Shown one piece after another: positions 536 through 53,421 of a stretch of DNA of 53,485 bases (positions within the stretch are counted from its first letter, which is position 1; the number at the start of each line of letters is the position of its first letter). The position numbers were made by a program, and so were the translations under genes. The notes below the pieces were generated by a model. The model saw only the letters and a list, made by a program, of their open reading frames with translations. It did no database searches and was not told the DNA's origin. The DNA lies in IMG/VR virus record IMGVR_UViG_3300025805_000002, positions 1 through 53,485 of that record. One strand, 5' to 3'. The stretch is from a virus. Taxonomy: Duplodnaviria > Caudoviricetes.

Positions 536-1018
536 TGACGGCAAGGTCCAAGTTGGACATAAACTCTAAGGACACTTGAATGAACCAGCGAACCACCCTA
601 TTCTCCTAACTGTTCGGCAACCGAAGTCGCGTTCGGCCCGAACTCTGGGTTCCTTGCCAAGGTGGAATCCAGACGGGATGTTCAAGGCGTCCTTCTCTCG
701 GTAGGCCCAGGTCGGCGTTGAGTCCTCGCTGACCTGGGCCGTTCTCCCAGAACCTCGCGACCCCCACCGATACGTTGCACCCTCCCCCGCTCTGCGATAC
801 CTTCTGTCTTGCCACCCTCCCGGCGGCGGTCCCGGCGGTCCCTGAGCGTCATGCGGCGATGATGTCTCGGGGACCCACCCCCTCCCAGATGAAATTGATC
901 TGTAGGCCCGACGAATCGCCCCTGTAGGCCCGTCGAGCGAAACCGTTTCGTAGGCCGAGCCATCCATGCTAGGGTGAAATCCAGAGCGAGATCGGACGCT
1001 CTACCTCCCTGTTGAACT

Positions 1019-1047
1019 TGCCCTGCCTCGGCGGGGCATTTTTTTTT
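1019..1047 (+). terminator. Rho-independent terminator
   Basis: Stem TGCCCTGC/GCGGGGCA with CTCG loop, followed by 9 T. Confidence 0.8.
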
Positions 1048-1059
1048 GTGTTCCCCCTG

Positions 1060-1088
1060 TTGACTATCAACCCGCAGGCTACTATGTG
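1060..1088 (+). promoter_or_regulatory. Sigma70-like early promoter
   Basis: TTGACT at 1060 and GCTACTAT downstream, just after the terminator and before the DUF932 gene. Confidence 0.55.
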
Positions 1089-1149
1089 TTGTCCACGGGG
1101 GGCGTTACATCCTCCGCTGACCCTGACCACAAACAGCCAGGAGATGACC

Positions 1150-2265
1150 ATGGCCTTCGACAATCCTTCGATCCTCACCGCTTGCTCCGACCAATGGATG
1201 AACCGTCCCGACGACGAGCGTTTCACCAGCCTCCCCGAGATGCACCAGCACTTCACGGCTCTGCGCGACCGCAGCACCGGCAAGGCTGTCTCGTCCCGCC
1301 GCCTGAACTTCGCCCCCGACCCCACGAATCCGCTCAAGGGGCTGCTGGTCTCCGGCCAGAACGGCACCGAAGCGACTATGACCCACTGGTCGTTCGGCCA
1401 GATGGCGGGCCTCGCTGGTGCCCCGGCGGGCTATCTGCGGACCCTGCCCGCGCCGATGGCGGCGGACTGCCTGAACTATGGCGTCCAGATCGCCCGCGAC
1501 GTGGAAGATGTTGGCGTCCTCGTGACCAAGGAAGAGTCGGGGATGGTGCAGCTTCGCGCCGCCACCGGCCCGAACTACGGTCGCGTCTGGAACGCTGACA
1601 TCACTGGCGAACTGATCCGTCGCTTCGGCGATGGCCGCACCGGAGACTTCCGCGTTCCCGGCGAGTTCGGCAAGGAAGTCGCCATCGGCAAGCACAACAC
1701 CACCCTCTATGGCGGCGACCGCGATATGTTCGTGTTCCTGGCCGACGAGAAGAACCGGATCGAGGTTCCGAATCGGCGCAACGGTCAAGCGGGCTCGCTC
1801 GCTCGGGGCTTCTTCGTCTGGAACTCCGAGGTCGGCTCCAAGTCCATCGGCGTCGCCTTCTTCCTGTTCGATTTCGTCTGCATGAACCGGATCGTCTGGG
1901 GCGTCCAGGGCTATACCGAGCGCCGGATGCGGCACACCATCTCGGCCCCGGATCGCTGGGCGGACGACATCACGCCGATCATCGAAGAGTATGCCGAGTC
2001 CTCGGCCAAGCCCATTGAAGACACCATCGCGGCGGCCCAGGCCAAGAAGATCGAGAAGGTCGACACCTTCCTGGCGAACCGCTTCGGTGCCCGCATGGTC
2101 GCCAAGCTCCACGAGACCCACGAGCGCGAGGAAGGCCGCCCCGTCGAGACCATCTGGGACGCGACCACGGCCATCACCGCCATCGCCCGTGATATGCCGA
2201 ACCAGGACGCCCGTGTCGAACTGGAGCGCAAGGGCGGCGAACTGCTGGACCTCGTGGCGGCGTGA
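1150..2265 (+). CDS. DUF932-family protein
   Basis: SD AGGAG; motifs THWSFGQ...YLRTLP, RGFFVWNSEVG, F.VCMNRIVWG, MRHT. Confidence 0.75.
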   Translation: MAFDNPSILTACSDQWMNRPDDERFTSLPEMHQHFTALRDRSTGKAVSSRRLNFAPDPTNPLKGLLVSGQNGTEATMTHWSFGQMAGLAGAPAGYLRTLPAPMAADCLNYGVQIARDVEDVGVLVTKEESGMVQLRAATGPNYGRVWNADITGELIRRFGDGRTGDFRVPGEFGKEVAIGKHNTTLYGGDRDMFVFLADEKNRIEVPNRRNGQAGSLARGFFVWNSEVGSKSIGVAFFLFDFVCMNRIVWGVQGYTERRMRHTISAPDRWADDITPIIEEYAESSAKPIEDTIAAAQAKKIEKVDTFLANRFGARMVAKLHETHEREEGRPVETIWDATTAITAIARDMPNQDARVELERKGGELLDLVAA

Positions 2266-2435
2266 TCCCCCCAGCCTGGGTCGTCCTCAGAAGGGACGGG
2301 CGGCCCAGGCGAATCTTCCGGCGCTGGCGGATCATCGCAGGCCCTCTGAAGGTTCGCCTAGAGCGCCGTCGATGAAACTGTTCTGTAGGCTCCGGCCTCC
2401 GAGCACAACTGAAACCCTGAGCGAGAGAGCCTGCT

Positions 2436-2744
2436 ATGGACCCGAACGTCAGCCGTGTCGAAGTCGAACTGTCCCTGGTCTGGGCGTCCGAGAACCCCGA
2501 CCTGTTCCTGGATGCCGTCGCCAAGTTCCGCGACACCCACCAGGGCTGGGGCGTGAAGATCGACACCTTCAGGGCAGGGTTTATCACCCTGGCCGCCTCC
2601 AGGTTCCCCGTCGAAGAGCCGGAGTCCGAGGATCGCAAGAAACTGAAGCGGATCGCTTGGCTTCTCGGTGCGATCATACAGGACGCCGACACCGGCATGG
2701 AGCCCGACGAGATCATCCGAGAGGCGCACAAGCTCTGCCTCTGA
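2436..2744 (+). CDS. Hypothetical protein
   Basis: 102-aa ORF with GC3-rich codon usage. Confidence 0.65.
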   Translation: MDPNVSRVEVELSLVWASENPDLFLDAVAKFRDTHQGWGVKIDTFRAGFITLAASRFPVEEPESEDRKKLKRIAWLLGAIIQDADTGMEPDEIIREAHKLCL

Positions 2745-2863
2745 CGAAACCGTTTCGGCCTGGGGAGCCTCGCCCTCGTCTCCAGGCTGATCGAGGGGTG
2801 GGGGTCCCTCCCTCCCGCCTCCACCCCTCACCTGATACACTGATCGCAGAAAAGGAGAACACT

Positions 2864-3151
2864 ATGCGAATCCCCCAAACCATCTCGGGCCTGCTGGTCG
2901 ACATGATCGGCGACGCCCTGGGCTTCCGGCCTGCTGGCACCAGCGAAGGCAAGGGCGTCGAGCGCGCCCGCCAGCGCCTCGCTGAGAAGCGCAAGCGCAA
3001 CCAGGAAGTCTATGGGCACCTGCCGCCTGCCGAGCCGTCCCGGCAGGTTCTCCGGGCCGCCGTGCGCCGTGCGTTCAAGATCGAGCGGCACGGGCGCAAG
3101 ATGGCCGCGCTGAAGGGCAAGGTTCCCGGCGGGGCTGCGGTGGTCCAGTGA
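2864..3151 (+). CDS. Basic hypothetical protein
   Basis: SD AAGGAG, then ATG (MRIPQTISG). Confidence 0.7.
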   Translation: MRIPQTISGLLVDMIGDALGFRPAGTSEGKGVERARQRLAEKRKRNQEVYGHLPPAEPSRQVLRAAVRRAFKIERHGRKMAALKGKVPGGAAVVQ

Positions 3152-3297
3152 GATCGCTGCGCGAATATCTCGTGATCTCGGTGATGGCGTTGTCCCTTTT
3201 CGTCCTCACCTATGGCTTTATCAAGTCATGGGCAGAAGCGGGGCCTGGGTGCCCCGCAGACCCCACATGGCTCGGCTGGTGCGAGGACATCCAATGA
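3148..3297 (+). CDS. Small membrane protein (49 aa)
   Basis: GTGA and ATGA overlaps with both neighbours; hydrophobic stretch YLVISVMALSLFVLTYGFI. Confidence 0.55.
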   Translation: MRSLREYLVISVMALSLFVLTYGFIKSWAEAGPGCPADPTWLGWCEDIQ

Positions 3298-3443
3298 CGA
3301 CGAGACCACAAGGAACCTACGACAACCCGCTCCCGACGCTGGAGTGGCCCGACGCGAATCCCCCGGCAAGCTGGTGGGGTCGCAACTCGAACGGCGAGAT
3401 CACCAAGGTCTACCGCTCCTATGCGGATTACTGCAATGACTGA
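3294..3443 (+). CDS. Hypothetical protein
   Basis: SD GAGG and ATGA overlap; MTTRPQG...YCND. Confidence 0.55.
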   Translation: MTTRPQGTYDNPLPTLEWPDANPPASWWGRNSNGEITKVYRSYADYCND

Positions 3444-3660
3444 CCTCGCCGATCTGCGCCGCACCGCCGAGGCCCAGGACGCCTACGGCAAGTGGAACAC
3501 GGCACCGGCCTGGAACCGCTACCACGCGGCCAGACGGGCCGCCCAGAGCCCGCTCCGGCGCGTCCTGGGTGATCTCGCGGCCAAGGGCGGCCTCGCCCTG
3601 GCGCTGATCTTCTCCTGGGGCCTGATCCTGGCCCCGATCTGGGTTCCCCTGACACGTTGA
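3436..3660 (+). CDS. Small protein with C-terminal TM helix
   Basis: Coupled ORF; GGLALALIFSWGLILAPIW. Confidence 0.6.
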   Translation: MTDLADLRRTAEAQDAYGKWNTAPAWNRYHAARRAAQSPLRRVLGDLAAKGGLALALIFSWGLILAPIWVPLTR

Positions 3661-3671
3661 AGGAGACCGGC

Positions 3672-3878
3672 ATGACATTCTCTGCACCCATCCCAGCCGT
3701 TCTGTCACATGCCGGAATACGGGTCCAAGCCCAGACCCTGAAGTGCCGGTGCGGGGCCAGCATCACGATCCCGTGCAACACGGTTTCGAGCACCCTGCCC
3801 CGGCAAGTCGTTCACAAGAAGGCCGCCCAGAAAGGATGGAAGACGGGCCGTCGACCGAAGTGCCCCGATTGCAAATGA
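3672..3878 (+). CDS. Small Zn-finger protein
   Basis: SD AAGGAG; CRCG and CPDC motifs. Confidence 0.65.
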   Translation: MTFSAPIPAVLSHAGIRVQAQTLKCRCGASITIPCNTVSSTLPRQVVHKKAAQKGWKTGRRPKCPDCK

Positions 3879-3922
3879 CCGCCTGCGCCTGTAGTGTGAC
3901 CAAGCGACCCTGGAGGATTGAA

Positions 3923-4687
3923 ATGCGCCAACTGATCGTTCGATGGACAGAAAGGTTCCTGCGCTGGCGCATGGTCGGCAAGCCGATCTACGTCGTCAGC
4001 TTCGGACAGATCACCTGGGGTGGCACCATCATGGGAGTCCAGATCGACGAGACCGCAGGCGAAGTGACCGTGACCGCTTTTCATGCGACGGACGGCGTGG
4101 TTCCCTTCGACGATGGCTGCGGCTACGCTCCGATCCTCCGATTCCCGCTCACCGACAAGCTCTCCTGGAACGCCAGGAAGGAACATTACGAGGTTGAAGC
4201 CGATGTCCTGGACCCCCGAGGAAGACGCCGCCCTGAAATCCCTCTGGGCGGCGGGGCACACCGTCCCCGAGATCGCCAAGCGGATGGGCAAGAACCCCAG
4301 CACCGTCAAAGCCCGCCGGAAGCGGCTGAACATTCGCCCGCGCAGGACCGGCGATCTCACCGAGAAAGTTCGCGTCGGGTTCCACCCCGACACGATGCAC
4401 CTGCTGCGGACCAAGGCCCGACGCACCGGGCAGACGATCCCGGCCAGGATCAGGATGCTCGTCGAGCGCGACATGCGCGAACCCTAACCCTGGCCATCAA
4501 CGACACTGGCTGGATTCCTGACGGTATCCTGATCGGCGTCTCTCCCGACCAGCGGCTGCACATCTACCGCCTGGACATGGAGGCCCCGCCGATGCCTGAC
4601 GGCACCGTCATCTGGGCGAACTCCTACACCGCTGAAGAATACCGGCTCTGGACTCACGAGGTCCTGGGCCGCCCTGCAACCCATTAG
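3923..4687 (+). CDS. Hypothetical protein; frame stays open across the nested HTH gene
   Basis: SD GGAGG; protein-like N- and C-terminal thirds, low-complexity middle. Confidence 0.5.
   Translation: MRQLIVRWTERFLRWRMVGKPIYVVSFGQITWGGTIMGVQIDETAGEVTVTAFHATDGVVPFDDGCGYAPILRFPLTDKLSWNARKEHYEVEADVLDPRGRRRPEIPLGGGAHRPRDRQADGQEPQHRQSPPEAAEHSPAQDRRSHRESSRRVPPRHDAPAADQGPTHRADDPGQDQDARRARHARTLTLAINDTGWIPDGILIGVSPDQRLHIYRLDMEAPPMPDGTVIWANSYTAEEYRLWTHEVLGRPATH
4203..4487 (+). CDS. GcrA-like N-terminal HTH plus possible ribbon-helix-helix
   Basis: MSWTPEEDAALKSLWAAGHTVPEIAKRMG matches the GcrA N-terminal pattern; SD GAGG. Confidence 0.7.
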   Translation: MSWTPEEDAALKSLWAAGHTVPEIAKRMGKNPSTVKARRKRLNIRPRRTGDLTEKVRVGFHPDTMHLLRTKARRTGQTIPARIRMLVERDMREP

Positions 4688-4700
4688 GAGGCTCGCCGCC

Positions 4701-5222
4701 ATGCCCTATACCCTGAAGCTCGGTCAGTTCTTGATCGAAGACATCCTGAACCCGAAGCCTGAACAGATCGACATCCACGCCATCGAAGAGCGGTTGCGCG
4801 TCGTGCGCCGCTTCTCGAATGACCCCAAGGCTCTGACCGTCCACCAGCACCGCGTCCTGGTCTCGACGCTGGCTCTCCGGTGCGGCTACCACGGTCGCGA
4901 TGTCCAGGAGTGGTGCTGGCACCACGACGATCACGAGGCCGTCATCGGCGACATTCCCGGCCCGCTGAAGGGGCTGATCTCGAACTACACCGACATCCTG
5001 CGCCACGTTGAAACGGGTCTTGACCGCGCGATCTGTCTGGCCTACCGGATCGACTATCCGACCGAAGATACGCGCCGCCGGGTCCACATCTTCGACAAGG
5101 CCGCCGAGACCATCGAATGGCTCTGGGTGCTGAACCAGCCCCCGCAGCGGTGGAACGCGGACATTCCCGTCAACGAGGCCACGGCCCGCGAGCTTCTGGA
5201 CCACGCCCTGAAAGCTGCCTAG
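4701..5222 (+). CDS. HD-superfamily phosphohydrolase (YfdR/deoxynucleotidase-like)
   Basis: TVHQH...HHDDHEAVIGDIPGPLK motif. Confidence 0.75.
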   Translation: MPYTLKLGQFLIEDILNPKPEQIDIHAIEERLRVVRRFSNDPKALTVHQHRVLVSTLALRCGYHGRDVQEWCWHHDDHEAVIGDIPGPLKGLISNYTDILRHVETGLDRAICLAYRIDYPTEDTRRRVHIFDKAAETIEWLWVLNQPPQRWNADIPVNEATARELLDHALKAA

Positions 5223-5287
5223 ACCTCCCCCACGGGTCTAGTGTATCAATAAGGGCCGACCCCCAACATCTAGTCAGGAGAGACTGC

Positions 5288-8200
5288 ATGAACACGCCTT
5301 TCGCCGCCCCGATTTCGGAGGAAATCTGGGACATGAAATACCGCCTGAAGGAACTCGACGGCACGATCCGGGACATCTCGATCCAGGACACCTGGAGACG
5401 GATCGCCCGAGCCCTGGCCGCATGTGAAACCGACCCGATCCTTTGGGAAGAACAGTTCTTTGAGGTCCTGAGCGATTTCAAGTTCCTGCCCGCTGGCCGG
5501 ATCATCGCCGGGGCCGGTGCGGGCCGGAACGTGACCCTCTTCAACTGCTACGTCATGGGCACGATCCCGGACTCCATGAACGGCATCTTCGACGCCCTGA
5601 AGGAAGCCGCTCTGACCATGCAACAGGGCGGTGGGATCGGATACGATTTCAGCCCGCTCCGGCCAAAAAGCTCGCCGGTCAAGGGCGTGGCCGCTGACGC
5701 CTCCGGGCCGCTGACCTTCATGGATGTCTGGGACGCGATGTGTCGCACCGTCATGTCGGCGGGCTCCCGGCGGGGGGCGATGATGGCGACCATGCGCTGC
5801 GATCACCCCGACGTGCTGGACTTCATCACCGCGAAGCAAGAGAGCACCCGCCTGCGGATGTTCAACCTTTCGGTGCTGGTAACGGATGCCTTCATGCGGG
5901 CCGTCCAAGAGAACCGCGACTGGTATCTGGTCCACGTCGAGCCTCCTGCCCACAGGGGCAAGGATGAACTGACGATACTGGACAACGAAGGTGACGACGG
6001 GCGGACCAAGGGTCTACCGCGCTATGTTCACCGCGTCGTGAAAGCGGTGGACCTCTGGGAAAAGATCATGCGCTCGACCTACGATTATGCCGAGCCCGGT
6101 GTGATCTTTATCGACCGTATCAACCGCGATAACAACCTGAACTACTGCGAAACCATCGCTGCGACCAACCCCTGTTTTGCAGGCAACCAAACCCTCTGGA
6201 CCGACCAAGGTCTCAAGACCTTTGCTGAACTGGAAGGGCAGCGTGTGTCTGTCCTGACTGAAAACCAAGTGGGCAAGCTGGTCTACCACCCCATGGATGT
6301 TTTCAAAACAGCCGAGAATCAAGAAATTCTCCGTGTGACTCTGGACGATGGCACGACCATCGACTGCACGCACACCCATGAATTCTTCGATCTGCAACGC
6401 AATCGGGTCGAAGCCCGTGATCTCCTTCCGGGTCAGAGGCTTGCCTCAGTCTACCGCCACAACGCCAACTCCAAAGGCTACAAGCGGCTGACCAACGGCA
6501 TCGACAATCCGCTGGAACACCATGTTCCTTTTGAGATCATTCCTGATGGATTTCATGTTCATCACAAAAACGAGATCAAAGACGACAATCGTCCTCAGAA
6601 TCTCGAATTGATCCTCGGTTCAGACCACAACTCCTACCACATGCAGGGTGACAGGAATCCTTCCATCACCCACCCTGAAAACAACAAACTGATCCAGATG
6701 GACCATTCTGGGTCGAACAATGGGCGGTATCGTGAAGACCTTGACGATGATGATCTTCAGGAAATGCGGAAACAGGGCATGTCCTACATTGCCATCGCAC
6801 AAGCTGTGGGATGCTCCAAATACACGGTCATGAAGCGTCTGGGGTATGAGCGCCCCAACCACAAAGTTGTTTCTGTTGAACCTCTCATGGAACGTCAGGA
6901 CGTGTTCTGTGGCACTGTGGGAGAAACCCATCGGTTCTTCCTTGGCTGCGAACGTGGTGGTGTGCTGGTCTCTAACTGTGGTGAGCAACCGTTGCCCCCC
7001 TACGGTGCCTGCCTGCTGGGCTCGATCAACCTGACCCGCTTCATCCGCAGTCCGTTCAAGGCTCCGGTCAAGGGGGCCAAGGGCGACTACGCCCGGATCA
7101 TGGGCGACGAACTCGACCGTGCCGTCAAGATCGCCGTGCGGATGATGGACAACGTGAACGACGTGTCCAAGTTCCCGCTGCCGCAACAAGCCGAAGAGAG
7201 CCGCCTGAAGCGCAGGATCGGCCTGGGTGTGACTGGTCTGGCCGACGCCCTGGCGATGCTCTGCGTCCCCTACGACTCGCCGGAAGCGATCAAGGTGGCC
7301 GAAGGGATCATGCGCCGGATCACCCTGGCGGCCTACGAAGCCTCGGTCGAACTCGCCAAGGAGAAGGGTGCCTTCCCCGCGTTCGACGCCGAGAAGTATC
7401 TGGCGAACGAGACCTTCGCCTCGCGCCTCCCGGACTACCTGAAGACCCTGATCCGCGAGCACGGCATACGCAACTCCCACCTGACCTCCATCGCCCCCAC
7501 CGGCACGATCTCGCTCGTGGCGGGCAACGTGTCCTCGGGGATCGAGCCGATCTTCGCGCTCGATTACAAGCGCAAGGTGACGCAGAAGGATGGGTCCAAG
7601 ACCGAACAGCGCGTCCAGGACTACGCGGTCATGGCTTACCACACCGCGTTCGACCTGGAGCCCGACGAGGACTTGCCGAGCTACTTCGTCACCGCCCAGG
7701 ACCTCGAACCGCTGGCCCATGTTCGGATGCAAGCCGCCGTCCAGACCTGGGTGGACACGTCGATCTCCAAGACGATCAACGTGCCGAAGGACATCCCGTT
7801 CGCGGTCTTCGAGCACGTCTACCTGGAAGCCTATCGCCTGGGGTGCAAGGGATGCACCACCTACCGCCCGAACGATGTCACCGGCTCTGTGATCTCGGTC
7901 GAAGAGAAGCCCGTCGAAACGGTTTCGCAGGATGACGGCTTCGCTCTGACCGTGCGCTCCGAGACCCTGGAGGGCAAGACCTACAAGGTCAAGCTGGGTG
8001 GCGCTCCGGGCTTCTACATCACGATCAACGACATCGTGCAGGGCGATTCGCGACGCCCGTTCGAGGTCTTCATCAACACCAAGAACCCGGAGCACATCGC
8101 CTGGAGCACCGCGCTCACGATGATGATCTCCGCGATCTTCCGTCGCCCCCACGACGCCAGCTTCGTCGTCGAGGAACTGAAGAGCGTCTTCGACCCCAAG

Positions 8201-8476: not shown

Positions 8477-8536
8477 TCTGACGAAACGGTTTCGCCGGGG
8501 TCCCACGACTCCGGCGAAACTATTTCGGTCGACCAG

Positions 8537-8565
8537 TTGACAGTAAACTCGCAGTTGCTTATATC
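8537..8565 (+). promoter_or_regulatory. Sigma70-like promoter
   Basis: TTGACA-17 nt-TATATC upstream of the ParB-like gene. Confidence 0.7.
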
Positions 8566-8605
8566 TGGGGTCACGCGACAACTCTGCCCCGAAGGAGGAC
8601 TCACC

Positions 8606-9475: not shown

Positions 9476-9476
9476 C

Positions 9477-10040: not shown

Positions 10041-10053
10041 AAGGACCGCCGCA

Positions 10054-10389: not shown

Positions 10390-10513
10390 CCATGGCGATC
10401 CAGCCCGACCCCGATCTGGAGTTCACATGCAAGTTCATGTGGACCCTGATCTCTGAAGAAGATCGCCGTCGAATCAAGGCCGGTGGGCCTGCCGTCAAGG
10501 AGAAGGAGAAGAA

Positions 10514-11277: not shown

Positions 11278-11278
11278 C

Positions 11279-43458: not shown

Positions 43459-46365
43459 TCAATCCTTCACGAACCACTTGGAGATGTGACCGGCCACCTT
43501 CAGCGGCATGCCCCCCATCCAGCGGTCGCGGTCTGTCATGCACTGGATCAGCGTGGTCAGGGCGTCGTCGGCGTTCTCTTCCCGGACGAGCCCCACGATC
43601 TGGTCGTGGATGTGCATGACGATAGGAATCCCTGCCTTGGCCGCTTTCATCATCCCGGAAGCCAGTAGGTCCCTAGCGATGGCTTGGTCCGCGTTCTCGG
43701 TCAGCTTGCCGGGGTGGGTGCTGATCCGATCCCACTGGTATTTGTCGTTCTGGCCCTCATAGGTGAGGGACATCTTGAAATCGCCCCACGGTGCCAGGAC
43801 CTCTTCCAGCTTCGGGCGCGGGTAGTGCAGCGAACGCCCGCTGGGCAGGTTCATCCGCAGGAACGGGCCTTTGCGGTCGAAGCTGACATGCCCGCAGGCC
43901 GTCTCCTTCTTCGTCCGCATGGTCCTGAAGGCGGCCCGCTGGAGGTCATACCAGAACTGGACAGCTTCCTTGAAGGTCTCCCTCCAGACCCGAACCGAAC
44001 GCTCGGCCTCTTCCGGGGTGAGCTTGACCCCCATGTTCCAGGCATAGCCCAGGAGGCCGGTTGCCTCGATCTCGCCGGTCTGCCGGTTCTCGTATTGCTT
44101 GCCAGCGCCGAGCATGTATCCGCAGTTATGGGCCACGACGCACCCACTTTCCGTCAGGACCGCGAACCGGGCATAATCCCCGGTATTCAGGATGTCCCAA
44201 GTGTCTGCTGTTTGAGTTCTGTTCTGATCGAGTTGCGAGCCGAAGGTTCCCTGGCTCGTAATGCCCGTCGTTGTCGATTCGGTCGATTTCGAGGGTTCCA
44301 TCAGCCCCGAGAGTTCCCGCGACATAGGACACCCACTCGTCAGCGGAACCGAATAGGCAACATATTCCGCGCTCCCCGTAATAACGGTAGGCACGGTTCT
44401 CCGGGTTTTCGCAACGCGCTCGCGCAGCATAGAAACGATTTGCGAGTAAGTCGTAAAGGACTGCGCCGACTCGCTTTCCAACATCGGAGCGACGGTCAGC
44501 CGAAGCGCAGCCGGTGCAACGTGTGGATAATCCGCGCACGAGGTTTGATCTTGGTATCTTTCGTTCTCGACCACATTTGCATCGGCATAGAAAGACTTTT
44601 CCCGTGCTGCGAGAGGACCCCGCTTCTCCAAGAACACGCCATTCCCCATAACGAGAGCCGACTTGAACATCTGTTGCAGGGACGCCGATTGCCACTCATG
44701 CCATCCTTCTTCAGTCAAAAACCGATGGTCAGAAGTAGCATGTATCCCAGACCCACACAAGACTTCTTGGTGGCCTTTGAAAACCACGCCCTCGTGACGA
44801 ACCCACTTCTCGCCATCGTGAAGCCAATCATCACTATTGACCTCCACGATGGCCTTCCAGCCTTTGTCCGTCAGAACCGGAGTGTCGCCCTTCAAGCACC
44901 CCAATACACCCGGCTTCGCGATGGTCCGCTTGCCTTTGTTGCCGCCCTTGAACTCGGCCCAAAGCTCTTCGTAGGTCTTGCCGTAGAGGTAGGTGGCGAA
45001 GTCGATGTAGGGGTCCAGTCCCTTCTTGAAGACGCGCAGAATCTTCGGGTCATTCGCCAGCCAGCCAAGGACGACGTTCTCGATGGCCGCAAGGTCGGCG
45101 TCGATGAACACATAGCCCGGAGGGGCTTGCACCACCGTCCGAACAGCGCCGGAGATCGCGTCCATCGGGCGCGAGAACAGCATTTCGACGCCTTCCGAGG
45201 TCAGCGTCTGAAGAAGCATCGCGGCTTCGATCTGGGTGCCGCCGGTCACGAACTTGTAGCCTTGCGGCGTCTCACCCCAGGTCAGACCCTCCAAGTCCTT
45301 GGTCGGCTTCGCAAGGTTCTGGGGCTGGAAGACTCGGCCCGCCCAGCGCCACGTCCGACCCGCTCCGCTGAACTGGAAACAGTTTCGGAGGTTGCCGTCT
45401 TCGTCGACGTGCGAGGCCACGGCGTCGAACTTCTTGGTCGAGGTCCGGGAGACCTCCGACCGAAGCTCCAGCACCCGGCGGCATTCCTCGCTCTGGTTCG
45501 GGCGCTGACCGCGCTCGACCATCTGGTCATACTTCTCAATCGCCCGCCGGATGTGGCCCGCCTTCAGGTCGTTGAAGGGGTATCCTTCGTTCTGGAGCCA
45601 GCCGAGAAGCTGGGCCTGGGCGTTCGGGTTTTCGAGTTGGGTGATCTCTTCCAGTTCCTCGATCCGGTCAGCGACCAGTTCGTCTCGAACCTCGATCACG
45701 TTGCGGCACATCTCCATGTTCACGGGGATGCCGCGATCATTGATCTCCTGGTCCAGCGCCCAAAGCTCCCACTCGTGCTCCGGGAGATCGTATTTCCGCA
45801 GGATGCGGTAAATCTTGCGCTCGGACACCGTGTCCATGCGGTTATACTGAAGGAACTCCAACCACTTATCGTATTTCTCGTGGAAGTGGACTCGGCGCTC
45901 CGGGCGCGTCTTGGTCGCGGGCCTGGGCTTGCAGAACCAGTTGATAAGCCGGTGCCCGTCCTCCTTCAGATACTTCTCGTCGAGCCGGAGGACCTGACCG
46001 CACTTCGCCAGCTTCCCCGGCAGAGACAGGGAAAGGGCCATGACCATGGGGTCTCGCCATGCCGAGTGCGGCGTGTCGATCCCGAGGGAGTGCTTCCAGA
46101 TGTTCCACTCGAAGTTCTTGTTCCAGGCGAACTTCTTGACCCTATCGTCGAGCATCGCGTCCTCGACCTCGGCGGGCATGGGTTGCCCTTCCGCCGGAAC
46201 CCATTGCTTCACGGCCTCGTCGTCAAAGGCATAGGCGAGCATGAGGGGTTCGGTCGACGGGTCGCGCGCATAACGAGACGCCCCGACCTTCGTTACGTCC
46301 GCGAGCGAAAAAGTTTCAAAATCGTGGTGGAATCGTTTCGGTCGGGGTTTGAAGATCGCCGTCAT
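43459..46365 (-). CDS. Family A DNA polymerase with intein
   Basis: DFET exonuclease I, YNRMD, GRTWRWAG, DADLAAIE, R..AK..VLG|CGY motif B, HIHDQIV. Confidence 0.92.
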   Translation of the reverse strand: MTAIFKPRPKRFHHDFETFSLADVTKVGASRYARDPSTEPLMLAYAFDDEAVKQWVPAEGQPMPAEVEDAMLDDRVKKFAWNKNFEWNIWKHSLGIDTPHSAWRDPMVMALSLSLPGKLAKCGQVLRLDEKYLKEDGHRLINWFCKPRPATKTRPERRVHFHEKYDKWLEFLQYNRMDTVSERKIYRILRKYDLPEHEWELWALDQEINDRGIPVNMEMCRNVIEVRDELVADRIEELEEITQLENPNAQAQLLGWLQNEGYPFNDLKAGHIRRAIEKYDQMVERGQRPNQSEECRRVLELRSEVSRTSTKKFDAVASHVDEDGNLRNCFQFSGAGRTWRWAGRVFQPQNLAKPTKDLEGLTWGETPQGYKFVTGGTQIEAAMLLQTLTSEGVEMLFSRPMDAISGAVRTVVQAPPGYVFIDADLAAIENVVLGWLANDPKILRVFKKGLDPYIDFATYLYGKTYEELWAEFKGGNKGKRTIAKPGVLGCLKGDTPVLTDKGWKAIVEVNSDDWLHDGEKWVRHEGVVFKGHQEVLCGSGIHATSDHRFLTEEGWHEWQSASLQQMFKSALVMGNGVFLEKRGPLAAREKSFYADANVVENERYQDQTSCADYPHVAPAALRLTVAPMLESESAQSFTTYSQIVSMLRERVAKTRRTVPTVITGSAEYVAYSVPLTSGCPMSRELSGLMEPSKSTESTTTGITSQGTFGSQLDQNRTQTADTWDILNTGDYARFAVLTESGCVVAHNCGYMLGAGKQYENRQTGEIEATGLLGYAWNMGVKLTPEEAERSVRVWRETFKEAVQFWYDLQRAAFRTMRTKKETACGHVSFDRKGPFLRMNLPSGRSLHYPRPKLEEVLAPWGDFKMSLTYEGQNDKYQWDRISTHPGKLTENADQAIARDLLASGMMKAAKAGIPIVMHIHDQIVGLVREENADDALTTLIQCMTDRDRWMGGMPLKVAGHISKWFVKD
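44125..44898 (-). mobile_element. Intein (258 aa) in polymerase motif B
   Basis: Starts CLKGDTPVLTDKGW; block B HATSDHRFLT; ends VVAHN followed by Cys+1. Confidence 0.9.
44126..44695 (-). CDS. HNH endonuclease nested out of frame inside the polymerase intein
   Basis: FLCRCKCG, STRCTGC, RCENP...YRYYGERGI, LEIDRIDNDGHYEPGNLRLATRSEQNSN; SD AAGGA 8 nt before GTG. Confidence 0.85.
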   Translation of the reverse strand: MAIGVPATDVQVGSRYGEWRVLGEAGSSRSTGKVFLCRCKCGRERKIPRSNLVRGLSTRCTGCASADRRSDVGKRVGAVLYDLLANRFYAARARCENPENRAYRYYGERGICCLFGSADEWVSYVAGTLGADGTLEIDRIDNDGHYEPGNLRLATRSEQNSNSRHLGHPEYRGLCPVRGPDGKWVRRGP

Positions 46366-46366
46366 C

Positions 46367-47083
46367 CTACCCCCACGTCTCTGCCATCGCCGAGGCAATG
46401 CCCTCGTAAGTCGCCGCTCGAAGTGCCCAGCGATCTTCGGAAGGTCCAAGATTGTTCTGTCCGCTAGGAGTCTGGTTGCCCCACACAGTCTTCAGCCTCG
46501 TGCCGCACACGGGACAATCCGATTCGTCTTCGTCGTATACGAACTTGACCTTGCAGGCAGGGCACCCATGCTTCGGGGAGACGCGCAACGTCGGCTTCAA
46601 CGGCTCCAGCCCTCCGCGAAGCCAAAGGCACGTCGCCTTCCTCGCGTCATGCCCATACTGATTCGGTTGCACGATCTGCGTCGCCTTCAATCCGAGACGA
46701 GACGGAATGACCCCCACAGGGTTTTCGATACAAACTTTCGGTATAGGAGCTTCCCAGAGCTTGCGGAAAAACTCCACGGCCTCGTCTCGCGCCCGTCGCC
46801 TGACAGAGCCGAAGAGGGCGTCAGAGCCCCTGGCTTTCGCTTTCTCTTCGGCTTCGTCGGAATAACACCACTCCGCTGCGATGGTCAAATAGGTGCAATC
46901 TGGATGAAAGATTCCAAGGTCCCACGGCCCGTGATCGGCGATGGCCTTGAACACATCCATGTGCAAATGATGCGGACTCCCGTCCGCTGCGGGGAGAATG
47001 TCGTTCGACCAAGCGTCGTGACCCTTCTCACGAAACTTCCGTCTTACGGCCCCGGTGAACTCACATCCAATAAGGACTCTCAT
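46367..47083 (-). CDS. Putative DNA cytosine methyltransferase (phage type) with Zn-ribbon insert
   Basis: MRVLIGCE, HPDCTYL, IENPVG, QPNQYGH..RKATCLWL, R..TYEGIA.AMA.TWG. Confidence 0.7.
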   Translation of the reverse strand: MRVLIGCEFTGAVRRKFREKGHDAWSNDILPAADGSPHHLHMDVFKAIADHGPWDLGIFHPDCTYLTIAAEWCYSDEAEEKAKARGSDALFGSVRRRARDEAVEFFRKLWEAPIPKVCIENPVGVIPSRLGLKATQIVQPNQYGHDARKATCLWLRGGLEPLKPTLRVSPKHGCPACKVKFVYDEDESDCPVCGTRLKTVWGNQTPSGQNNLGPSEDRWALRAATYEGIASAMAETWG

Positions 47084-47818: not shown

Positions 47819-49060
47819 TCATAGGGTTTCATCGGTTGCATCAAGGTCGTCAAACATATCGACCGCTGATTCTATCCGGGGCCGGTTGTCTTCTTCCGGC
47901 ACCAGGATAGGTTGCGGAGTCCCATGGTCGACGAATCGGTCCAAGAGCTTCGCATACCGGGCTTTGCCCAGCTTCTTCTCTGCCTGTGCGGGCGAGAGAA
48001 GTTCGGGAGGATGGTAAGCCTCGTCGCCGAGTTCCTTCCTCAAAACGGTTTCGGCCTTGTGGGTCGCGTTCTCGTGATACTTGCGGGCGGGGCGCTTGCC
48101 CTCCACCAGCTTCATCCCCGGAACCGGGTTCCCCACCTGGGCGTCGTGGTAGGCGGCCTTGCGCAGAGCCTCCATCCACTGGTTCAAGATCGGCTTCAGC
48201 CGCAACAGGATCGTGCGGCGCTCGGGCGTGACCTCTTCCGGCGCTTCGAGTTCGGGCAGGAACCCGGTCTCGTCCGCCATGTCGAGATCGTCGAACTCCA
48301 GCCCGATCATCTCCATGTTCCATTCGGCGAAGGTGCCGCAGTAATCCTTGGCGCGGCACCACCGGCATTGCTTCACACCGGCCTTGCGAGGCGGGTTCTT
48401 GGCCGTCGTCAGCACGGCCTGCCGCTTGGCGTGTTGGCCGAACTCCAGGACGCGCTGCATCGTGGTCTCCCACAGGCCGCCGCCGCCCGGAACCCTGGGC
48501 TGTTCGATGATGATCGTCACCTTGACCCCGGACGGGTCCCAATCGAACAGCTTGCCGAAGATCGTCTGCCACGCACCGAGGCAGTAGCCTTGGGCTTGCT
48601 CGTTCTCCTGGGGGTAAACCGGCTCCTTGCCGTATTTCCAGTCGAACACGATCACCAGCTTCTTGGCGACGTTGACCAGGATCACGTCGGCGGTGCCGAA
48701 CTGACCCGGCAGGGTCCACTTCGAGATGTCCACGCGGGTCTCGACGTAGAGTTCCCAGCCGGGTTCAGCGGCCACGTTCCGAACGAAGTCCAGGCCATCG
48801 CGCACCGCAGCGCACATCTCTTCGTTGTATTCGACGAAGAAGCCATCGACCTCCAGGCCCCTCCCGCCGCCGACATAATCCTCGGGCTCGAAGCCCATCT
48901 CCAGACAGTCGGCCACGAGTTCGTGGAGCACAGTCCCCTCGGCGGCCTCGAATCGGGCCTTGTCCGGTATCCCGGCCTGCGCCTGAACGCTGCCGGGGCA
49001 CCGAATCCAGCGGCTCCAAGACGAAGGGCCGAGAGAACTATGTTCGACGGGAGTGCCCAT
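47819..49060 (-). CDS. DUF2800 PD-(D/E)xK/Cas4-like nuclease
   Basis: HSSLGPSS..RW..CPGS, EGTVLH, FGTADV, DWKYG, CRWCRAK..C. Confidence 0.88.
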   Translation of the reverse strand: MGTPVEHSSLGPSSWSRWIRCPGSVQAQAGIPDKARFEAAEGTVLHELVADCLEMGFEPEDYVGGGRGLEVDGFFVEYNEEMCAAVRDGLDFVRNVAAEPGWELYVETRVDISKWTLPGQFGTADVILVNVAKKLVIVFDWKYGKEPVYPQENEQAQGYCLGAWQTIFGKLFDWDPSGVKVTIIIEQPRVPGGGGLWETTMQRVLEFGQHAKRQAVLTTAKNPPRKAGVKQCRWCRAKDYCGTFAEWNMEMIGLEFDDLDMADETGFLPELEAPEEVTPERRTILLRLKPILNQWMEALRKAAYHDAQVGNPVPGMKLVEGKRPARKYHENATHKAETVLRKELGDEAYHPPELLSPAQAEKKLGKARYAKLLDRFVDHGTPQPILVPEEDNRPRIESAVDMFDDLDATDETL

Positions 49061-49953: not shown

Positions 49954-52680
49954 ATGGCGACGGCATGGCCGAACGCCAGCCGAGAAGTCCGTATCGCCAG
50001 GGGGCGCGGGTTCAATCTCGGTAAGGCGAAGAATCAGGTGATGACATGGAAGAGCTTCTGCGCTCTCTTCTCGTCTCCACCTAGAACGAACGAAAAACAG
50101 AAGGCATATTTCAAGCTCCCGAAGACGGAGCAAGACCGACTCAAGGCGATGGACGGCTGGTATCTGGGGGGTCCCATCCAGGGTGGCCGCCGCCGGAAGA
50201 ACTCCATCGCTGAACGCGACCTGATTACCATCGACATCGACGATTGCGCCCCGGAACTGTTCTCGCTGATCGAGGACGGCATCCTGGAGATCGCCAACTT
50301 CGAGTTCGTGGCCCACACCACGCGGAAGCACCAGCCGAAGGCCCCCAGGGTCCGTCTGAACTTCCCGCTCACCCATCCGGTGAAGCGCGACGAATACGAC
50401 GCCGTGAGCCGGATTCTGGCCCACAAGATCGACCAGAGCATGGACGCCGTGGACGACGTGTCGTTCCGCGTCGCCCAGATGATGTTCATGCCGTCGTGCT
50501 CCAAGGACCAGGAATACAAGACCTGGGTGAACAAGGGCCGCCTGCTGGACCCGGAAGAGCTTCTGGAGTCCTGGCCGGGAGACTGGCGCGATTTCAACAA
50601 CCTGCCCTTCAGTGATTCGCGTGGCAAGAAACGCCCGACCGCTGACAAGGCCGAAGACCCGTTCGAGAAACGCGGCCCCATCGGCGCGTTCTGCCGCGCC
50701 TATCCGATCCAGGAAGCCATCGCCAAGTTCCTGCCCGACATCTACGTCCCTGGGGACATGAACTCGGGCAAGCCCCGCTACAGCTACACCCAGGGCTCGA
50801 CGACGAACGGCGTGGTGGTCGAGGACGATGGCCGCTTCATCTATTCGCACCACGGCACCGACCCGTGTTCCGACACGCTCTGCAACTCGTTCGACATGGT
50901 GCGCCTGCACAAGTTCGGCGATCTCGACGAGGGCAAGGACCTCGAAGACAAGGCCGTGACCGAGCACCCGTCCTTCAAGGCGATGTTCAAGTTCGCCCAG
51001 GAGGATCGTGCCGTCCAGAAGGAGATGGTCGAGGACGAGATCGACATCGAAGCGATGTTCGACGACATCTCGGACATGGATGACGAAGAGGTCGAAGAGA
51101 CCCGCGACGCCTACGAGACCGGCGAAGACCTCGACGCCGAGATCAGGGCGATCCTGGGTGACGAAGGCGAAGACCTGACCCGCAATGGCCTGCCGCCCTA
51201 TCCGGGCTCCGAGGTTCCGAAGAAGCCGAAGAAGGGCTGGACGCGGGAACTGGAGGTAACGAACGACGGCAAGATCAAGGCGACCGTCTTCAACATCGCC
51301 ACCATCATCGCGAACGATCCGCGCCTCCACGGCAGCATCGCCCGCAACGTGTTCTCGGGCCGGATTTGCTCCAGGCGTCCGATCAAGAGCAAGATGGCGC
51401 TGGTGCCGAGCATCACGGTTCCTGACCGAGAAGATGGCCTGGAGTGGACTGACGCGCATGATGCCTCGATCCGTATGATCTTGGAGGCTCCCTCGGGTCA
51501 AGGTCAACCCGGCTACGGTCTGAAGGTCTCCGACCGAGACATCAAGGACGCCATCATCCTCGTCGCCAAGCGATGGGAATACCACCCGATCATCGACAGA
51601 CTGATTCGGCTCCCCTGGGATGGCAAGAAGCGGGTCGAGACCCTTTTCGTGAACTACCTCGGGACGCCAGACACGCCCTACCACCGGGAGACTGCGAAAC
51701 AGTTCCTCCTGGGCTGCGTCGCTCGCGTGTTCAGCCCTGGGCACAAGTTCGACTATGTGCCGGTGCTGGCCGGTGAACAGGGCGTCAGGAAGTCAACCTT
51801 CGTCGAGACCCTGGCCTTCAGCAAATGGGCAGGAGAACTGACCGTCGATATGAGCGGCGACAAGGATGCCGTCGAACAGATGCTTGGGAAGTGGATTTTG
51901 GAGCTAGGCGAACTCGTGTCGCTGCGGCGATCCGAGATCGAGAGCCAGAAGGGCTTCATCTCCCGGCGCGAGGATCGCGTCCGCTTGGCCTATGACAAGC
52001 GCATGTCGACCTTCCCTCGTCAGTGCCTCTTCATGGGCACCACGAACGAATACGAGTATCTGAAGGATGACAAGAACCGCCGGTTCTGGCCGGTGGAGGT
52101 CACGGTCCAGAGCATCGACACCGACAAGCTCAGGGGTGAGATGGATCAGGTCTGGGCCGAAGCCGTCGCGCTCTACAAGGAACTGATCTCCCGGCATGAC
52201 TACCGCCGGATTCCGTTCGGCCTGTCTGGCGAGGCTCTGGCCGAGGCCGAGCAACGTCAGGAAGGGGCTCGGGTCGAGAGCACCGAAGACCAGACGCGGG
52301 CGCGGATCGAGCCCTTCCTGGACACCCCCATCGACATCGGATCGCTGGACGGCGAGGACTTCGCCGATCTGGACATGCCCGACATGAAGGTGATCCGGGT
52401 CAAGACCTGTGCCGAACAGCTTGTTCACGAGGCCCTGAAAGAGAGCCCCCGCAGCACCCAGCACCAGAACGCTTGGTCGCAGGTGGTGGGCCGCGTGATG
52501 AAGCGCCTCCCTGGCTGGGTCAAGTATTCCGAGTATACCCAAGGGGCTGGGCACCAGTTGACCATGGGCGAATATGGCCGTCAGCGGGCCTATGTCCGCG
52601 CTGACGCCACTCCTTACGAGATCGCGAACGGCTACAGGGTTGTCGAGGTCGAAGACGGCGATCTGGAAGACATCCTCTGA
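49954..52680 (+). CDS. Primase-helicase (AEP-like primase plus VirE/VapE SF3 helicase)
   Basis: DIDD, HTTRKH, PRVRL; LPWDG..RVE, GEQGVRKST, RLAYD, GTTN, NRRFWPV. Confidence 0.9.
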   Translation: MATAWPNASREVRIARGRGFNLGKAKNQVMTWKSFCALFSSPPRTNEKQKAYFKLPKTEQDRLKAMDGWYLGGPIQGGRRRKNSIAERDLITIDIDDCAPELFSLIEDGILEIANFEFVAHTTRKHQPKAPRVRLNFPLTHPVKRDEYDAVSRILAHKIDQSMDAVDDVSFRVAQMMFMPSCSKDQEYKTWVNKGRLLDPEELLESWPGDWRDFNNLPFSDSRGKKRPTADKAEDPFEKRGPIGAFCRAYPIQEAIAKFLPDIYVPGDMNSGKPRYSYTQGSTTNGVVVEDDGRFIYSHHGTDPCSDTLCNSFDMVRLHKFGDLDEGKDLEDKAVTEHPSFKAMFKFAQEDRAVQKEMVEDEIDIEAMFDDISDMDDEEVEETRDAYETGEDLDAEIRAILGDEGEDLTRNGLPPYPGSEVPKKPKKGWTRELEVTNDGKIKATVFNIATIIANDPRLHGSIARNVFSGRICSRRPIKSKMALVPSITVPDREDGLEWTDAHDASIRMILEAPSGQGQPGYGLKVSDRDIKDAIILVAKRWEYHPIIDRLIRLPWDGKKRVETLFVNYLGTPDTPYHRETAKQFLLGCVARVFSPGHKFDYVPVLAGEQGVRKSTFVETLAFSKWAGELTVDMSGDKDAVEQMLGKWILELGELVSLRRSEIESQKGFISRREDRVRLAYDKRMSTFPRQCLFMGTTNEYEYLKDDKNRRFWPVEVTVQSIDTDKLRGEMDQVWAEAVALYKELISRHDYRRIPFGLSGEALAEAEQRQEGARVESTEDQTRARIEPFLDTPIDIGSLDGEDFADLDMPDMKVIRVKTCAEQLVHEALKESPRSTQHQNAWSQVVGRVMKRLPGWVKYSEYTQGAGHQLTMGEYGRQRAYVRADATPYEIANGYRVVEVEDGDLEDIL

Positions 52681-52794
52681 CCCGGTTCAGGTTTTCCTGA
52701 CCGGGGCTACGGGGCGTTCCCATCCGACTCGACCGCTCGTTTTCAGCCGTTTCCAGAAACTCCAGAAATCCTGGAAACGGCTGAAAAATCCAGA

Positions 52795-53175
52795 TTTCCA
52801 GGAAATCCTAGAAACGCTGAAAACGTGGGACGGGTTCGGGGACCTGTCCGGGACCTGTCCCACCCACCTGTCCCACCTGATATTCAACATTTTCAGTGAC
52901 TTACGCGCAAGTGGGACAGGTGGGACAGGTATTTTGCTATACCATATATATCCCTCCCTCTGACCCCTGTTTTTCGCGATTTCTGGACCACAAACCGTGG
53001 CAACGCTAAGATTCCGTGATTTTCATCAACCTTCAACGACTCTATATAGCAAAATACCTGTCCCACCTGTCCCACTTAGAGGGTAAACCATTGAAAATTA
53101 ACGGAAAACAGGTGGGACAGGTGGGTGGGACAGGTGGTGGGACAGGTGTTCCAGCGTTTCTAGAAATCCTGGAAA
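52795..53175. repeat. Large inverted repeat with ~10 CTGTCCCAC/GTGGGACAG iterons; putative replication origin
   Basis: Perfect 33-bp inverted repeat 52909-52941 / 53045-53077 inside longer imperfect arms; AT-rich; directly after the primase. Confidence 0.75.
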
Positions 53176-53188
53176 TGACTGAAGCGAC

Positions 53189-53421
53189 CGAAACCGTTTT
53201 GGCCGCTCCCCGAAGCCCGTTTTCCCCTGGATGTCGACCTCGACCAAAACGGTTTCGGGGGTCATGTCCAAAACGGTTTCGGGGGTCATGTCCAAAACGG
53301 TTTCGGGGCACCCCCTGTGAGGGGATCACCCTGGACATCGGGGGTTTCTCTGCAAGATCAAGGGATTACGGGAACGCCAAAACGGTTTCGGCGCTGATAG
53401 GGGATCAACGAAACGGTTTCG
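53189..53421. repeat. Six CRAAACSGTTTYG palindromes, three at 24-bp period
   Basis: Copies at 53189, 53245, 53269, 53293, 53378, 53409. Confidence 0.9.

Follow-up and report, generated by a model that had tools for sequence, protein, structure and literature searches.

What reads a short palindrome that recurs from one end of a phage chromosome to the other? The IMG/VR virus contig IMGVR_UViG_3300025805_000002 (linear class, CheckV completeness 85%), from an uncultured virus of alphaproteobacteria, was analysed over its full 53,485 bp, hereafter the window. An initial annotation, made from the letters alone, had noticed a 13-bp palindrome, CRAAACSGTTTYG, throughout this stretch and had proposed that it is bound by a ParB-like protein, by the small terminase (TerS) or by another regulator. 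Our comparative analysis suggests that the palindromes are operator or loading sites for an orphan ParB/KorB-type protein encoded at 8606-9475, including sites from which this protein would regulate its own gene, a reading that we hold to be probable, albeit with modest confidence.

The palindrome is present in 18 exact copies in the window and in none of 100 dinucleotide-preserving shuffles, and all 18 coordinates listed by the initial annotation are correct. With up to one mismatch there are 25 sites against 0.21 expected (shuffle maximum 2), and with up to two mismatches 29 against 3.68 expected (shuffle maximum 9), so that the four two-mismatch sites lie at about chance level. The seven near matches noted earlier do exist, with one mismatch at 12235, 25609, 35736, 40641 and 42722 and two at 8515 and 45375; two further one-mismatch sites, at 3776 and 36723, were absent from that list. 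The G+C content, estimated by eye at ~64%, is in fact 62.4%. A codon-preserving control, in which synonymous codons were shuffled inside each of 54 genes (called from G+C bias at third codon positions and Pfam matches) over 500 rounds, yielded 0.05 coding copies on average and never more than 1, compared to the 7 observed (0/500 shuffles reached 7). Thus the enrichment persists under the shuffle that the initial annotation had named as a means of checking it. Intergenic DNA holds 11 of the 18 exact copies, though it constitutes only 7.5% of the genome (P 8e-9), and it still holds 5 of 12 when the cluster at the right end is left aside (P 1e-3).

Flanking bases widen the motif to a 15-bp consensus, cCRAAACSGTTTYGg, with the core CRAAA-CSG-TTTYG, and the central base follows no strand pattern among the exact sites. 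Copies within genes had been said to read ETVS or ETVL, which is so for five of the seven exact coding copies, the remaining two reading RNGF and QNRF. Sites were also said to stand right after stop codons; indeed, the distances are 0 bp (2745), 5 bp (8482), 8 bp (16989) and 1 bp (30080). The supposed kinship of the half-sites with those of bacterial parS in reversed orientation is, on the other hand, superficial. The canonical parS, TGTTNCACGTGAAACA, has 0 copies in the window.

The candidate reader of these sites carries a central helix-turn-helix (HTH), with its recognition helix at about residues 140-162, that matches Pfam HTH_ParB PF17762 (E 4.3e-6, 27.2 bits against a cut-off of 22.6), and the protein matches the ParB-like family PHROG 1033 (E 1.1e-43). 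A profile built from 28 homologues found Spo0J in the PDB (7e-14), followed by ParB, KorB (6e-10) and Noc (8e-9), and an N-terminal ParB/Srx nucleotide-binding domain is present, the profile aligning residues 42-184 and beyond to Spo0J. Foldseek, searching with an AlphaFold model (predicted local distance difference test score, pLDDT, 80), returned KorB 8qa9 as best match (E 6e-10), then Noc and ParB, with both the N-terminal and the DNA-binding domain covered; sequence identity to KorB is ~19%. The C-terminal part, where the superfamily has its dimerisation domain, is modelled as two strands and a helix at 241-269 (pLDDT about 70-77). By sequence and predicted fold, the protein has the N-terminal domain and the HTH of the ParB/KorB/Noc superfamily. 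Its N-terminus, MAKTGLAAIAQGRTDLF, shows no ParA-binding motif of the form (L/F/I)G[KR]G(L/F/I), the definition given in the accessible text of PMC12704722, and by the criteria of that paper the protein is an orphan ParB. The earlier claim that there is no ParA holds across the 57 open reading frames scanned against Pfam, none of which gave a ParA/CbiA-type match, a missing gene being conceivable in a record that is 85% complete. With no ParA, no ParA-binding motif and no canonical parS, the protein is not part of a ParABS partition system. The ParB that activates 5mYOX (available text of PMC13229309) was considered as a model and is an unlikely one, that class having no obvious DNA-binding domain and the gene downstream of the ParB-like gene, 9477-10040, having no Pfam family at E <=0.001 and only weak, unrelated matches at E <=5.

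Two sites had been reported just upstream of the promoter of the ParB-like gene, and both are there, the exact one 42 bp and the two-mismatch one 9 bp upstream of its -35. We propose that a dimer of the ParB-like protein would bind each palindrome via its two HTH domains and would repress its own promoter from these nearby sites. By analogy with KorB, a nucleotide-gated clamp might then close and spread from the dispersed sites to promoters, or coat the phage chromosome, and the six-site array near the right end could be where clamps load in large numbers. No clear sigma-70-type promoter was seen near the other sites: a consensus scan of positions 1-17500 gave 2 matches against 2.3 expected, and a stricter promoter expression run over the whole window added nothing useful.

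If the ParB-like protein reads the palindrome, does the palindrome travel with its gene? Relatives were compared across 17 IMG/VR loci and 58 metagenome loci, L056 and L060 being available as ~20-kb loci. A search of IMG/VR with the single ParB-like sequence found no relative; an alignment query recovered them, and ParB-like homologues amounted to 196 proteins on contigs up to 61 kb, the closer ones being 80-98% identical. In genome contigs the ParB-like search gave just two distant matches (29% identity), from which no host can be inferred. Sites with an AAACSGTTT core occur in 6/6 relatives whose ParB-like protein is 52-67% identical (G006, G007, L056, L058, L060 and L089), with 27 exact sites in 56 kb of G006 and 12 in 25 kb of G007 (null means <=0.15). 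Ruegeria phage DSS3-P1 and Synechococcus virus S-ESS1 share TerL, DNA polymerase, TerS, primase and structural genes with the window at 30-58% identity, but have no ParB-like gene, 0 motif copies and no over-represented palindrome. Co-occurrence of motif and gene, another check that the initial annotation had put forward, is thus positive in all six relatives with the gene and negative in the two without it.

Site positions are partly shared as well. A site stands beside the ParB-like promoter in the window, L056 and L060 (in the latter two at the place equivalent to window 8515); in L089 it is further upstream, and in G006 it falls within the 5' leader. The site after the stop codon of the major tail protein gene is kept between the window (30080) and G006 (21159), and the gap between gene 248-535 and the DUF932 gene holds a site in the window (938) and in L056 (1327). 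Arrays near a contig end comprise 6 copies in the window, 4 in G006 (at 82-204) and 3 in G007. A pair of sites ~450-570 bp apart upstream of the ParB-like gene, seen in the window, L056, L060 and G011, was not counted as conserved, because the distal site falls in KRF codons of a 190-aa gene in L056 and L060 and in the ribonucleotide reductase (RNR) gene in the window. That ~190-aa gene (L056 9165-9728, L060 7584-8156), which carries the motif HxxDHDxDCHDHPWDFW, takes the place of the RNR C-terminus ahead of the ParB-like gene, and the RNR of these two loci is of a different type from that of the window.

The form of the site varies in G006, where it is CGA(A)AC-S-G(T)TTCG, with 4 copies at a length of 13 bp, 14 at 12 bp and 9 at 11 bp (null mean <=0.1 for every length). 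Outer halves that sit 11, 12 or 13 bp apart would suit two flexibly tethered DNA-binding domains. These lengths arise via loss of one A/T on either or both sides, and they make G006 a natural series in which tolerance of half-site spacing could be examined. An explanation of the 11-mer CGAACSGTTCG as ERF codons was rejected, the 27 sites spanning all three frames, many peptides and non-coding DNA.

Among more distant carriers of the ParB-like gene, G011 (protein 41% identical, a common structural and replication core with the window, and an integrase) has no homologues of the GcrA-like gene (4203-4487), gene 10514 or gene 11732. Its palindrome, CGAAAGT-N-ACTTTCG, has the CGAAA half-site of the window motif, with 16 matches against a null maximum of 6 and 12 sites at <=2 mismatches, and two copies lie ~51 and ~590 bp upstream of the ParB gene. 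In AT-rich relatives (38-46% identity) TTAAAxSGTTTAA occurs 30-70 bp upstream of the ParB gene; under a strict rule, with near-duplicates removed, it was found in 7/46 loci against 2.5 expected, and under a looser rule in 21/53 loci (background 0.152 per 250 bp). The generalised form AAANSNTTT is enriched only in the window, in G007 and, weakly, in G006, and among the AT-rich relatives just TAAANSNTTTA edges over shuffles, in G009 and G010. Agrobacterium phage 7-7-1 (L021), an otherwise unrelated myovirus, encodes a ParB-like protein that is 42% identical, and a degenerate copy of its palindrome lies in the leader of the operon that holds the gene. That palindrome, TACAAATSATTTGTA (15 bp), fills the -35/-10 spacer of eight TTGAC/TATAAG-type early-region promoters at 25865-39122. 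The genome paper of 7-7-1, in its accessible part, reports having found no evidence of how transcription is timed, and the strings 'palindrom' and 'repeat' do not occur in that text (PMC3517404). Twelve loci in the collection with two motif copies 5-35 bp apart were treated as unrelated, because none of the five records checked showed a genome-wide pattern (1-4 copies each).

Several observations weigh against the ParB-like protein as reader. It is not the only gene product that accompanies the motif: in the close clade the GcrA-like gene, MazG (10054-10389) and genes 10514-10969 and 11732-12406 co-occur with it too. Five distant phages that carry a ParB-like gene (G008, G009, G010, G012 and G013) show no genome-wide palindrome above shuffle, so that the lattice would be a trait of some lineages and not of the whole family, and the G011 motif was chosen post hoc, three of its copies belonging to a longer repeat. 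The sites are not evenly spaced to a significant degree (coefficient of variation 0.67-0.68; P 0.05-0.13). Of the five intergenic sites outside the array, three adjoin GC-rich hairpins right after stops, a siting that the ParB model does not predict and that may reflect scarce non-coding space or a role in transcript punctuation. Nucleotide binding is also less than secure. The ParBc model PF02195 lies above E 0.001 on the protein itself, though a match is on record for some homologues, and the phosphate-binding motif is GESRLRA (family G-E-[S/C]-R-x-R) rather than GERRxR, for which two reasons CTP binding is not assured. Across the 28 sequences G74 and R77 are invariant and E75, R79 and A80 are conserved in at least 90%, the first Arg of the RR pair being Ser or Cys; N116 aligns to the Asn of ENLQR in Spo0J.

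Where among described systems might such a set of sites belong? The stoperators of Cluster A mycobacteriophages resemble the sites of the window in that one phage protein binds some 20-30 copies of a 13-bp sequence dispersed over the phage genome, many of them in short gaps between genes. A stoperator, however, is asymmetric, follows the direction of transcription and is the target of the immunity repressor; the window site is palindromic and shows no strand pattern, and the DSS3-P1 integrase and its neighbouring regulator have no homologue here. N15, a linear plasmid-prophage, has a few dispersed SopB sites, the ParA-type partner SopA and a protelomerase. It likewise scatters copies of a ParB-type palindrome among phage genes, but neither so small a number of sites nor SopA, a protelomerase or a plasmid prophage state was found in the window. 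Noc has many dispersed sites and no ParA partner. With ParB-parS and Noc-NBS the window protein has a common superfamily, and their sites are palindromes of 14-16 bp; the canonical parS and the ParA-binding motif set ParB-parS apart from the window, and Noc is described as an orphan without ParA partner in the accessible text of PMC12704722. BisD, as described in the available text of PMC12409273, is a ParB-like CTP clamp on a mobile element that serves gene control and not segregation, but it is an activator, acting on genes at a distance on the integrative conjugative element ICEclc.

With 0 copies of canonical parS and no ParA, the site set is a better fit to a network of the KorB/OB type than to a classical parS centromere, if the analogy holds. 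According to the accessible text of PMC11790492, on KorB of the IncP-1 plasmid RK2, OB has the core TTTAGCGGCTAAA with a central G or C, and its distance to the target promoter downstream is either 4-10 bp or 45 to >1,000 bp; the title of its reference 20 speaks of 12 KorB binding sites. Both systems combine a ParB-family HTH protein with a 13-bp operator of 6-1-6 layout and central G/C, and in both many operators are dispersed on a replicon of ~50-60 kb. Moreover, KorB is the best fold match to the ParB-like protein, and the 9 and 42 bp that separate the window sites from the -35 compare with a few bp or at least 45 bp for OB. Such operator-to-promoter placement is seen at the ParB-like promoter in the window, L056 and L060, and site 938 lies 108 bp from the DUF932-gene promoter. 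KorA and OA could likewise have parallels here, in another small DNA-binding protein and in another palindrome of the ParB-like promoter, although no KorA homologue was found in the window. There are also differences. The site sequence is another one, the setting is a tailed phage instead of a plasmid, and a ParA/IncC partner is missing; the window has about twice as many sites, many of them intragenic, and a six-copy array beside an origin-like block; and the phosphate-binding motif is GESRLR compared to GARRYR in KorB.

The right end of the window deserves closer description, as the array stands there. After the primase gene come, in this order, CCTGGAAA-type repeats, GGTGGGACAGGT iterons and the six palindromes, and the record stops 64 bases further on. 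The iterons, about a dozen arranged in inverted groups (52839-53150), surround an AT-rich core at 52942-53044, and this block is probably a replication origin. Short TCCAGAAA/CCTGGAAA/CTAGAAA repeats lie on both sides of it (52740-52831 and 53149-53192). G006 has a like layout with other iterons (GGGGTATCAC) and an unchanged palindrome, and DSS3-P1 has GTGTTCCA iterons and two 35-bp direct repeats where the palindromes stand in the window. Positions 53462-53480 match the final stretch of the G006 contig base for base (19/19), which means that assemblies of two diverged phages stop within 5 bases of one point. The right end of the record is therefore likely a true, cohesive genome end, and the statement that the sites cluster next to cos, to which this identity speaks, is plausible and not proven. 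The G007 contig continues for ~2.7 kb past the homologue of gene 248-535, via a GC-rich stretch like the two ends of the window, up to its terminal array. As a whole this arrangement suggests an origin with a site array at its side, beside a cohesive end. Near the left end three direct repeats of 24-26 bp (CCAAAACTTTGGAGACCTCGCCCG type) lie at 80-153, with counterparts in G006 (54437-54508, 77% identity), and they are an alternative candidate for the site of terminase or another end-binding protein.

Could a protein other than the ParB-like one read the palindrome? Of the readers proposed so far the ParB-like clamp is, on the comparative evidence, the most likely and TerS a weak one, while in the close clade the GcrA-like protein co-occurs with the motif equally well: its gene is present in the 4/4 close relatives examined and absent from DSS3-P1, S-ESS1, G011 and 7-7-1. 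It would bind as a ribbon-helix-helix (RHH) dimer at AC-S-GT with tethered HTHs at the outer CG(A)A, and the ParB-like gene would then be one regulated target only. We regard this reading, the main rival, as unlikely. The N-terminal HTH is clear enough (Pfam HTH_23 E 9e-6, GcrA E 9e-5), and the model shows three confident N-terminal helices, an extended or unstructured stretch and two C-terminal helices, the latter fold being as expected of an undimerised RHH, but no Pfam RHH model matches even at E up to 5. Five homologues share 31 invariant residues, including a putative beta-strand EKV(R/K)VGF, and in G006 the centre ACSGT stays constant while the outer parts shift, as such a dimer would have it. 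On the other hand, G011 and 7-7-1 have related odd-centred palindromes in spite of lacking the GcrA-like gene, G011 keeps a copy upstream of its ParB-like gene (7-7-1 in degenerate form), and AT-rich relatives that lack it too retain AAAxSGTTT palindromes upstream of theirs. There is, besides, an equally good target for the GcrA-like protein. A second palindrome, GTTGA-N3-TCAAC, stands at two promoters of the window and, as GTTGA-N3-T(C/A)AAC, in G006 (46585, 53398), G007 (17166), L056 (9928), L060 (3531, 5994, 8441) and L058 (476), all five of which also have a ParB-like promoter with the palindrome at its -35. It was absent from G011, DSS3-P1 and S-ESS1 and was seen only in the clade with the GcrA-like gene. 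This palindrome may well be the more likely target of the GcrA-like protein, in which case the two palindromes would form an operator pair like OA and OB of RK2.

The remaining alternatives fare worse. Binding by a host transcription factor or nucleoid protein, which the phage would exploit or titrate, we consider improbable; nothing speaks for it directly, and the motif is common to phages with a G+C content of 55 to 64%. Against it, the motif takes different forms in related phages (11/12/13 bp in G006, a central T in L056 and L060) and is missing from DSS3-P1 and S-ESS1. We know of no alphaproteobacterial regulator with an odd-centred AAAC-S-GTTT site. A packaging function, with the array as a cosB-like platform for TerS and the dispersed copies as auxiliary terminase sites, is hardly more credible than that, and if anything a shade less so. 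The array does lie 65-300 bp from what is probably a true genome end, those of G006 and G007 are at the equivalent place, and a small terminase gene is present (PHROG 141, E 1e-38). A lambda-type cosB, however, is confined to the side of the cleavage site, whereas 12 of the 18 exact copies are 0.9-26 kb away from the ends of the record and the seven one-mismatch copies are likewise dispersed; the TerS homologues of DSS3-P1 and S-ESS1 (37-41% identical) go with no comparable palindrome and no ParB-like gene; a conserved site adjoins the ParB-like promoter; and the conserved repeats at 80-153 weaken the case further, as a competing terminase-binding candidate. Least credible of all, and in our view very improbable, is that the sites punctuate transcripts, with or without a bound protein: one that stands between a stop codon and a GC-rich hairpin would pause or block RNA polymerase and thereby aid termination where the hairpin lacks a U-tract. 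Four sites begin 0-8 bp past stops, those at 2745, 8482 and 30080 abut or form strong hairpins, and the site behind the major tail gene is kept in G006. At 8482-8527 an exact site, a 20-bp GC-rich palindrome and a degenerate site make up a 46-bp near-perfect palindrome whose RNA folds at -33.3 kcal/mol (z -6.4). Termination would make no sense, however, at the seven exact and seven near copies inside genes or at the six of the end array, which is non-coding. By itself the 13-bp core would leave a loop of 1 nt and form no stable hairpin, which, together with the lack of any Rfam match, makes an RNA element unlikely. Punctuation would in any case require a binding protein, and so would be a possible function of the sites rather than a separate identity for them.

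What would follow if the ParB-like protein does bind these sites? Clamp-based long-range control of the KorB type would extend from plasmids to tailed phages, and the phages would offer a compact system in which to study the co-evolution of half-site spacing and recognition in the ParB family. More boldly, clamps might load at ~25-30 sites and the six-site array and spread over the entire 53-kb genome, a whole-chromosome organiser whose sites would lie wherever coding sequence tolerates them and which would be neither a partition protein nor a simple repressor; this idea we put forward as speculative and rather doubtful. Were it true, such a coat might set the timing of early and late transcription, label phage DNA as self with respect to nucleases of phage or host, or deliver the chromosome to the packaging motor at the end close by, and the GcrA-like protein might serve as a KorA-like lock on the pair of early promoters that bear GTTGA-N3-TCAAC. 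Orphan ParB-fold proteins are common on phages and mobile elements. They were recorded in a 2025 survey, whose accessible text assigns them no function (PMC12704722), and in the openly available literature that was searched, subscription-only papers lying outside this scope, orphan phage ParBs are noted and no such phage network is described. The window and its relatives thus make a concrete and testable case, with a full-length ParA-less ParB/KorB-type protein, a defined site of 13-15 bp, a site array by an origin-like block, a candidate autoregulatory promoter with KorB-like site distances, and relatives whose site sequence, length and copy number change along with the protein.

Table 1. Palindromic sites, regulatory genes and associated elements of the window.
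Feature	Position	Strand	Remarks
Exact site CGAAACCGTTTCG	938-950	.	intergenic; the -35 of the DUF932-gene promoter lies 108 bp downstream
Terminator-like hairpin	1019-1047		between site 938 and the DUF932 promoter
Second palindrome GTTGACTATCAAC	1059-1071	+	in the DUF932-gene promoter, overlapping the -35
Exact site	2745-2757	.	begins directly at the end of the stop codon of gene 2436-2744
GC-rich hairpin	~2755-2790		abutted by site 2745
One-mismatch site	3776-3788	.	within open reading frame 3657-3878
GcrA-like HTH protein, possible RHH tail	4203-4487	+	94 aa from internal ATG
Exact site	7915-7927	.	within RNR gene, reads ETVS; 691 bp upstream of ParB-like start
Exact site	8482-8494	.	5 bp past RNR stop; 42 bp upstream of ParB-like -35
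Two-mismatch site CGAAACTATTTCG	8515-8527	.	9 bp upstream of ParB-like promoter -35
Second palindrome GTTGACAGTAAAC	8536-8548	+	contains the -35 of the ParB-like promoter
ParB-like promoter	8536-8565	+	TTGACA 8537-8542, 17-bp spacer, TATATC 8560-8565; sigma-70-like
Orphan ParB/KorB/Noc-type gene	8606-9475	+	289 aa; ATG 8606 behind AGGAGG ribosome-binding site
Exact site	10921-10933	.	within gene 10514-10969, reads ETVS
One-mismatch site	12235-12247	.	within methyltransferase-like gene 11732-12406
Exact site	16030-16042	.	within muramidase gene 15712-16962
Exact site	16989-17001	.	between minus-strand genes: 8 bp past stop of 17010-17798, 26 bp before muramidase start
Exact site	23569-23581	.	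within tail gene 23135-24307, reads RNGF
One-mismatch site	25609-25621	.	within tape-measure gene
Exact site	28072-28084	.	within tape-measure gene, reads QNRF
GC-rich hairpin	~30052-30082		abutted by site 30080
Exact site	30080-30092	.	1 bp past stop of gene 30094-30882
One-mismatch site	35736-35748	.	CGAAA-CGA-TTTCG form, within protease gene
One-mismatch site	36723-36735	.	central T, within portal gene
Exact site	39985-39997	.	within N6/N4 methyltransferase gene 39829-40608
One-mismatch site	40641-40653	.	within small-terminase gene
One-mismatch site	42722-42734	.	within SNF2 helicase gene
Exact site	48041-48053	.	within DUF2800 nuclease gene
Six-site exact cluster	53189-53421	.	53189, 53245, 53269, 53293, 53378, 53409; three in 24-bp tandem unit

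By Pfam and PHROG scans the genome behind these sites is that of a Casjensviridae-like siphophage. It encodes a lambda-type terminase, portal, protease, decoration protein and capsid, tail proteins like those of gene transfer agents, and for replication a family A DNA polymerase, a VapE-type primase-helicase, an SNF2 helicase, a DUF2800 nuclease and an Enc34-type single-stranded DNA-binding protein. In TerL and DNA polymerase the window is ~50% identical to DSS3-P1 and S-ESS1, both Casjensviridae, and it is colinear in gene order with the DSS3-P1 record; gene 30094-30882 is a homologue of the annotated DSS3-P1 major tail protein. No integrase was found in the window by the Pfam scan.

Look-alikes of three alphaproteobacterial cell-cycle or nucleoid regulators are encoded, namely the GcrA-like HTH protein, GapR (10966-11277) and a CtrA-like protein (13728-14468) in which a Trans_reg_C domain is joined to DUF6456. 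Gene 10514-10969, which is present in the 4/4 close relatives examined, specifies a 151-aa protein with a weak likeness to alpha-CTD or helix-hairpin-helix domains (E 0.03). Three genes are DNA methyltransferase-like (11732-12406, 39829-40608 and 46367-47083); the palindrome itself contains no GANTC. The RNR gene (5117-8476) carries an intein with an HNH endonuclease (Pfam Intein_splicing, HNH_3), and the DNA polymerase (43459-46449) has an insert of ~257 residues (~519-775) that is missing in G006 and the Ruegeria phages and aligns over most of its length with Salmonella phage polymerases annotated as intein-containing.

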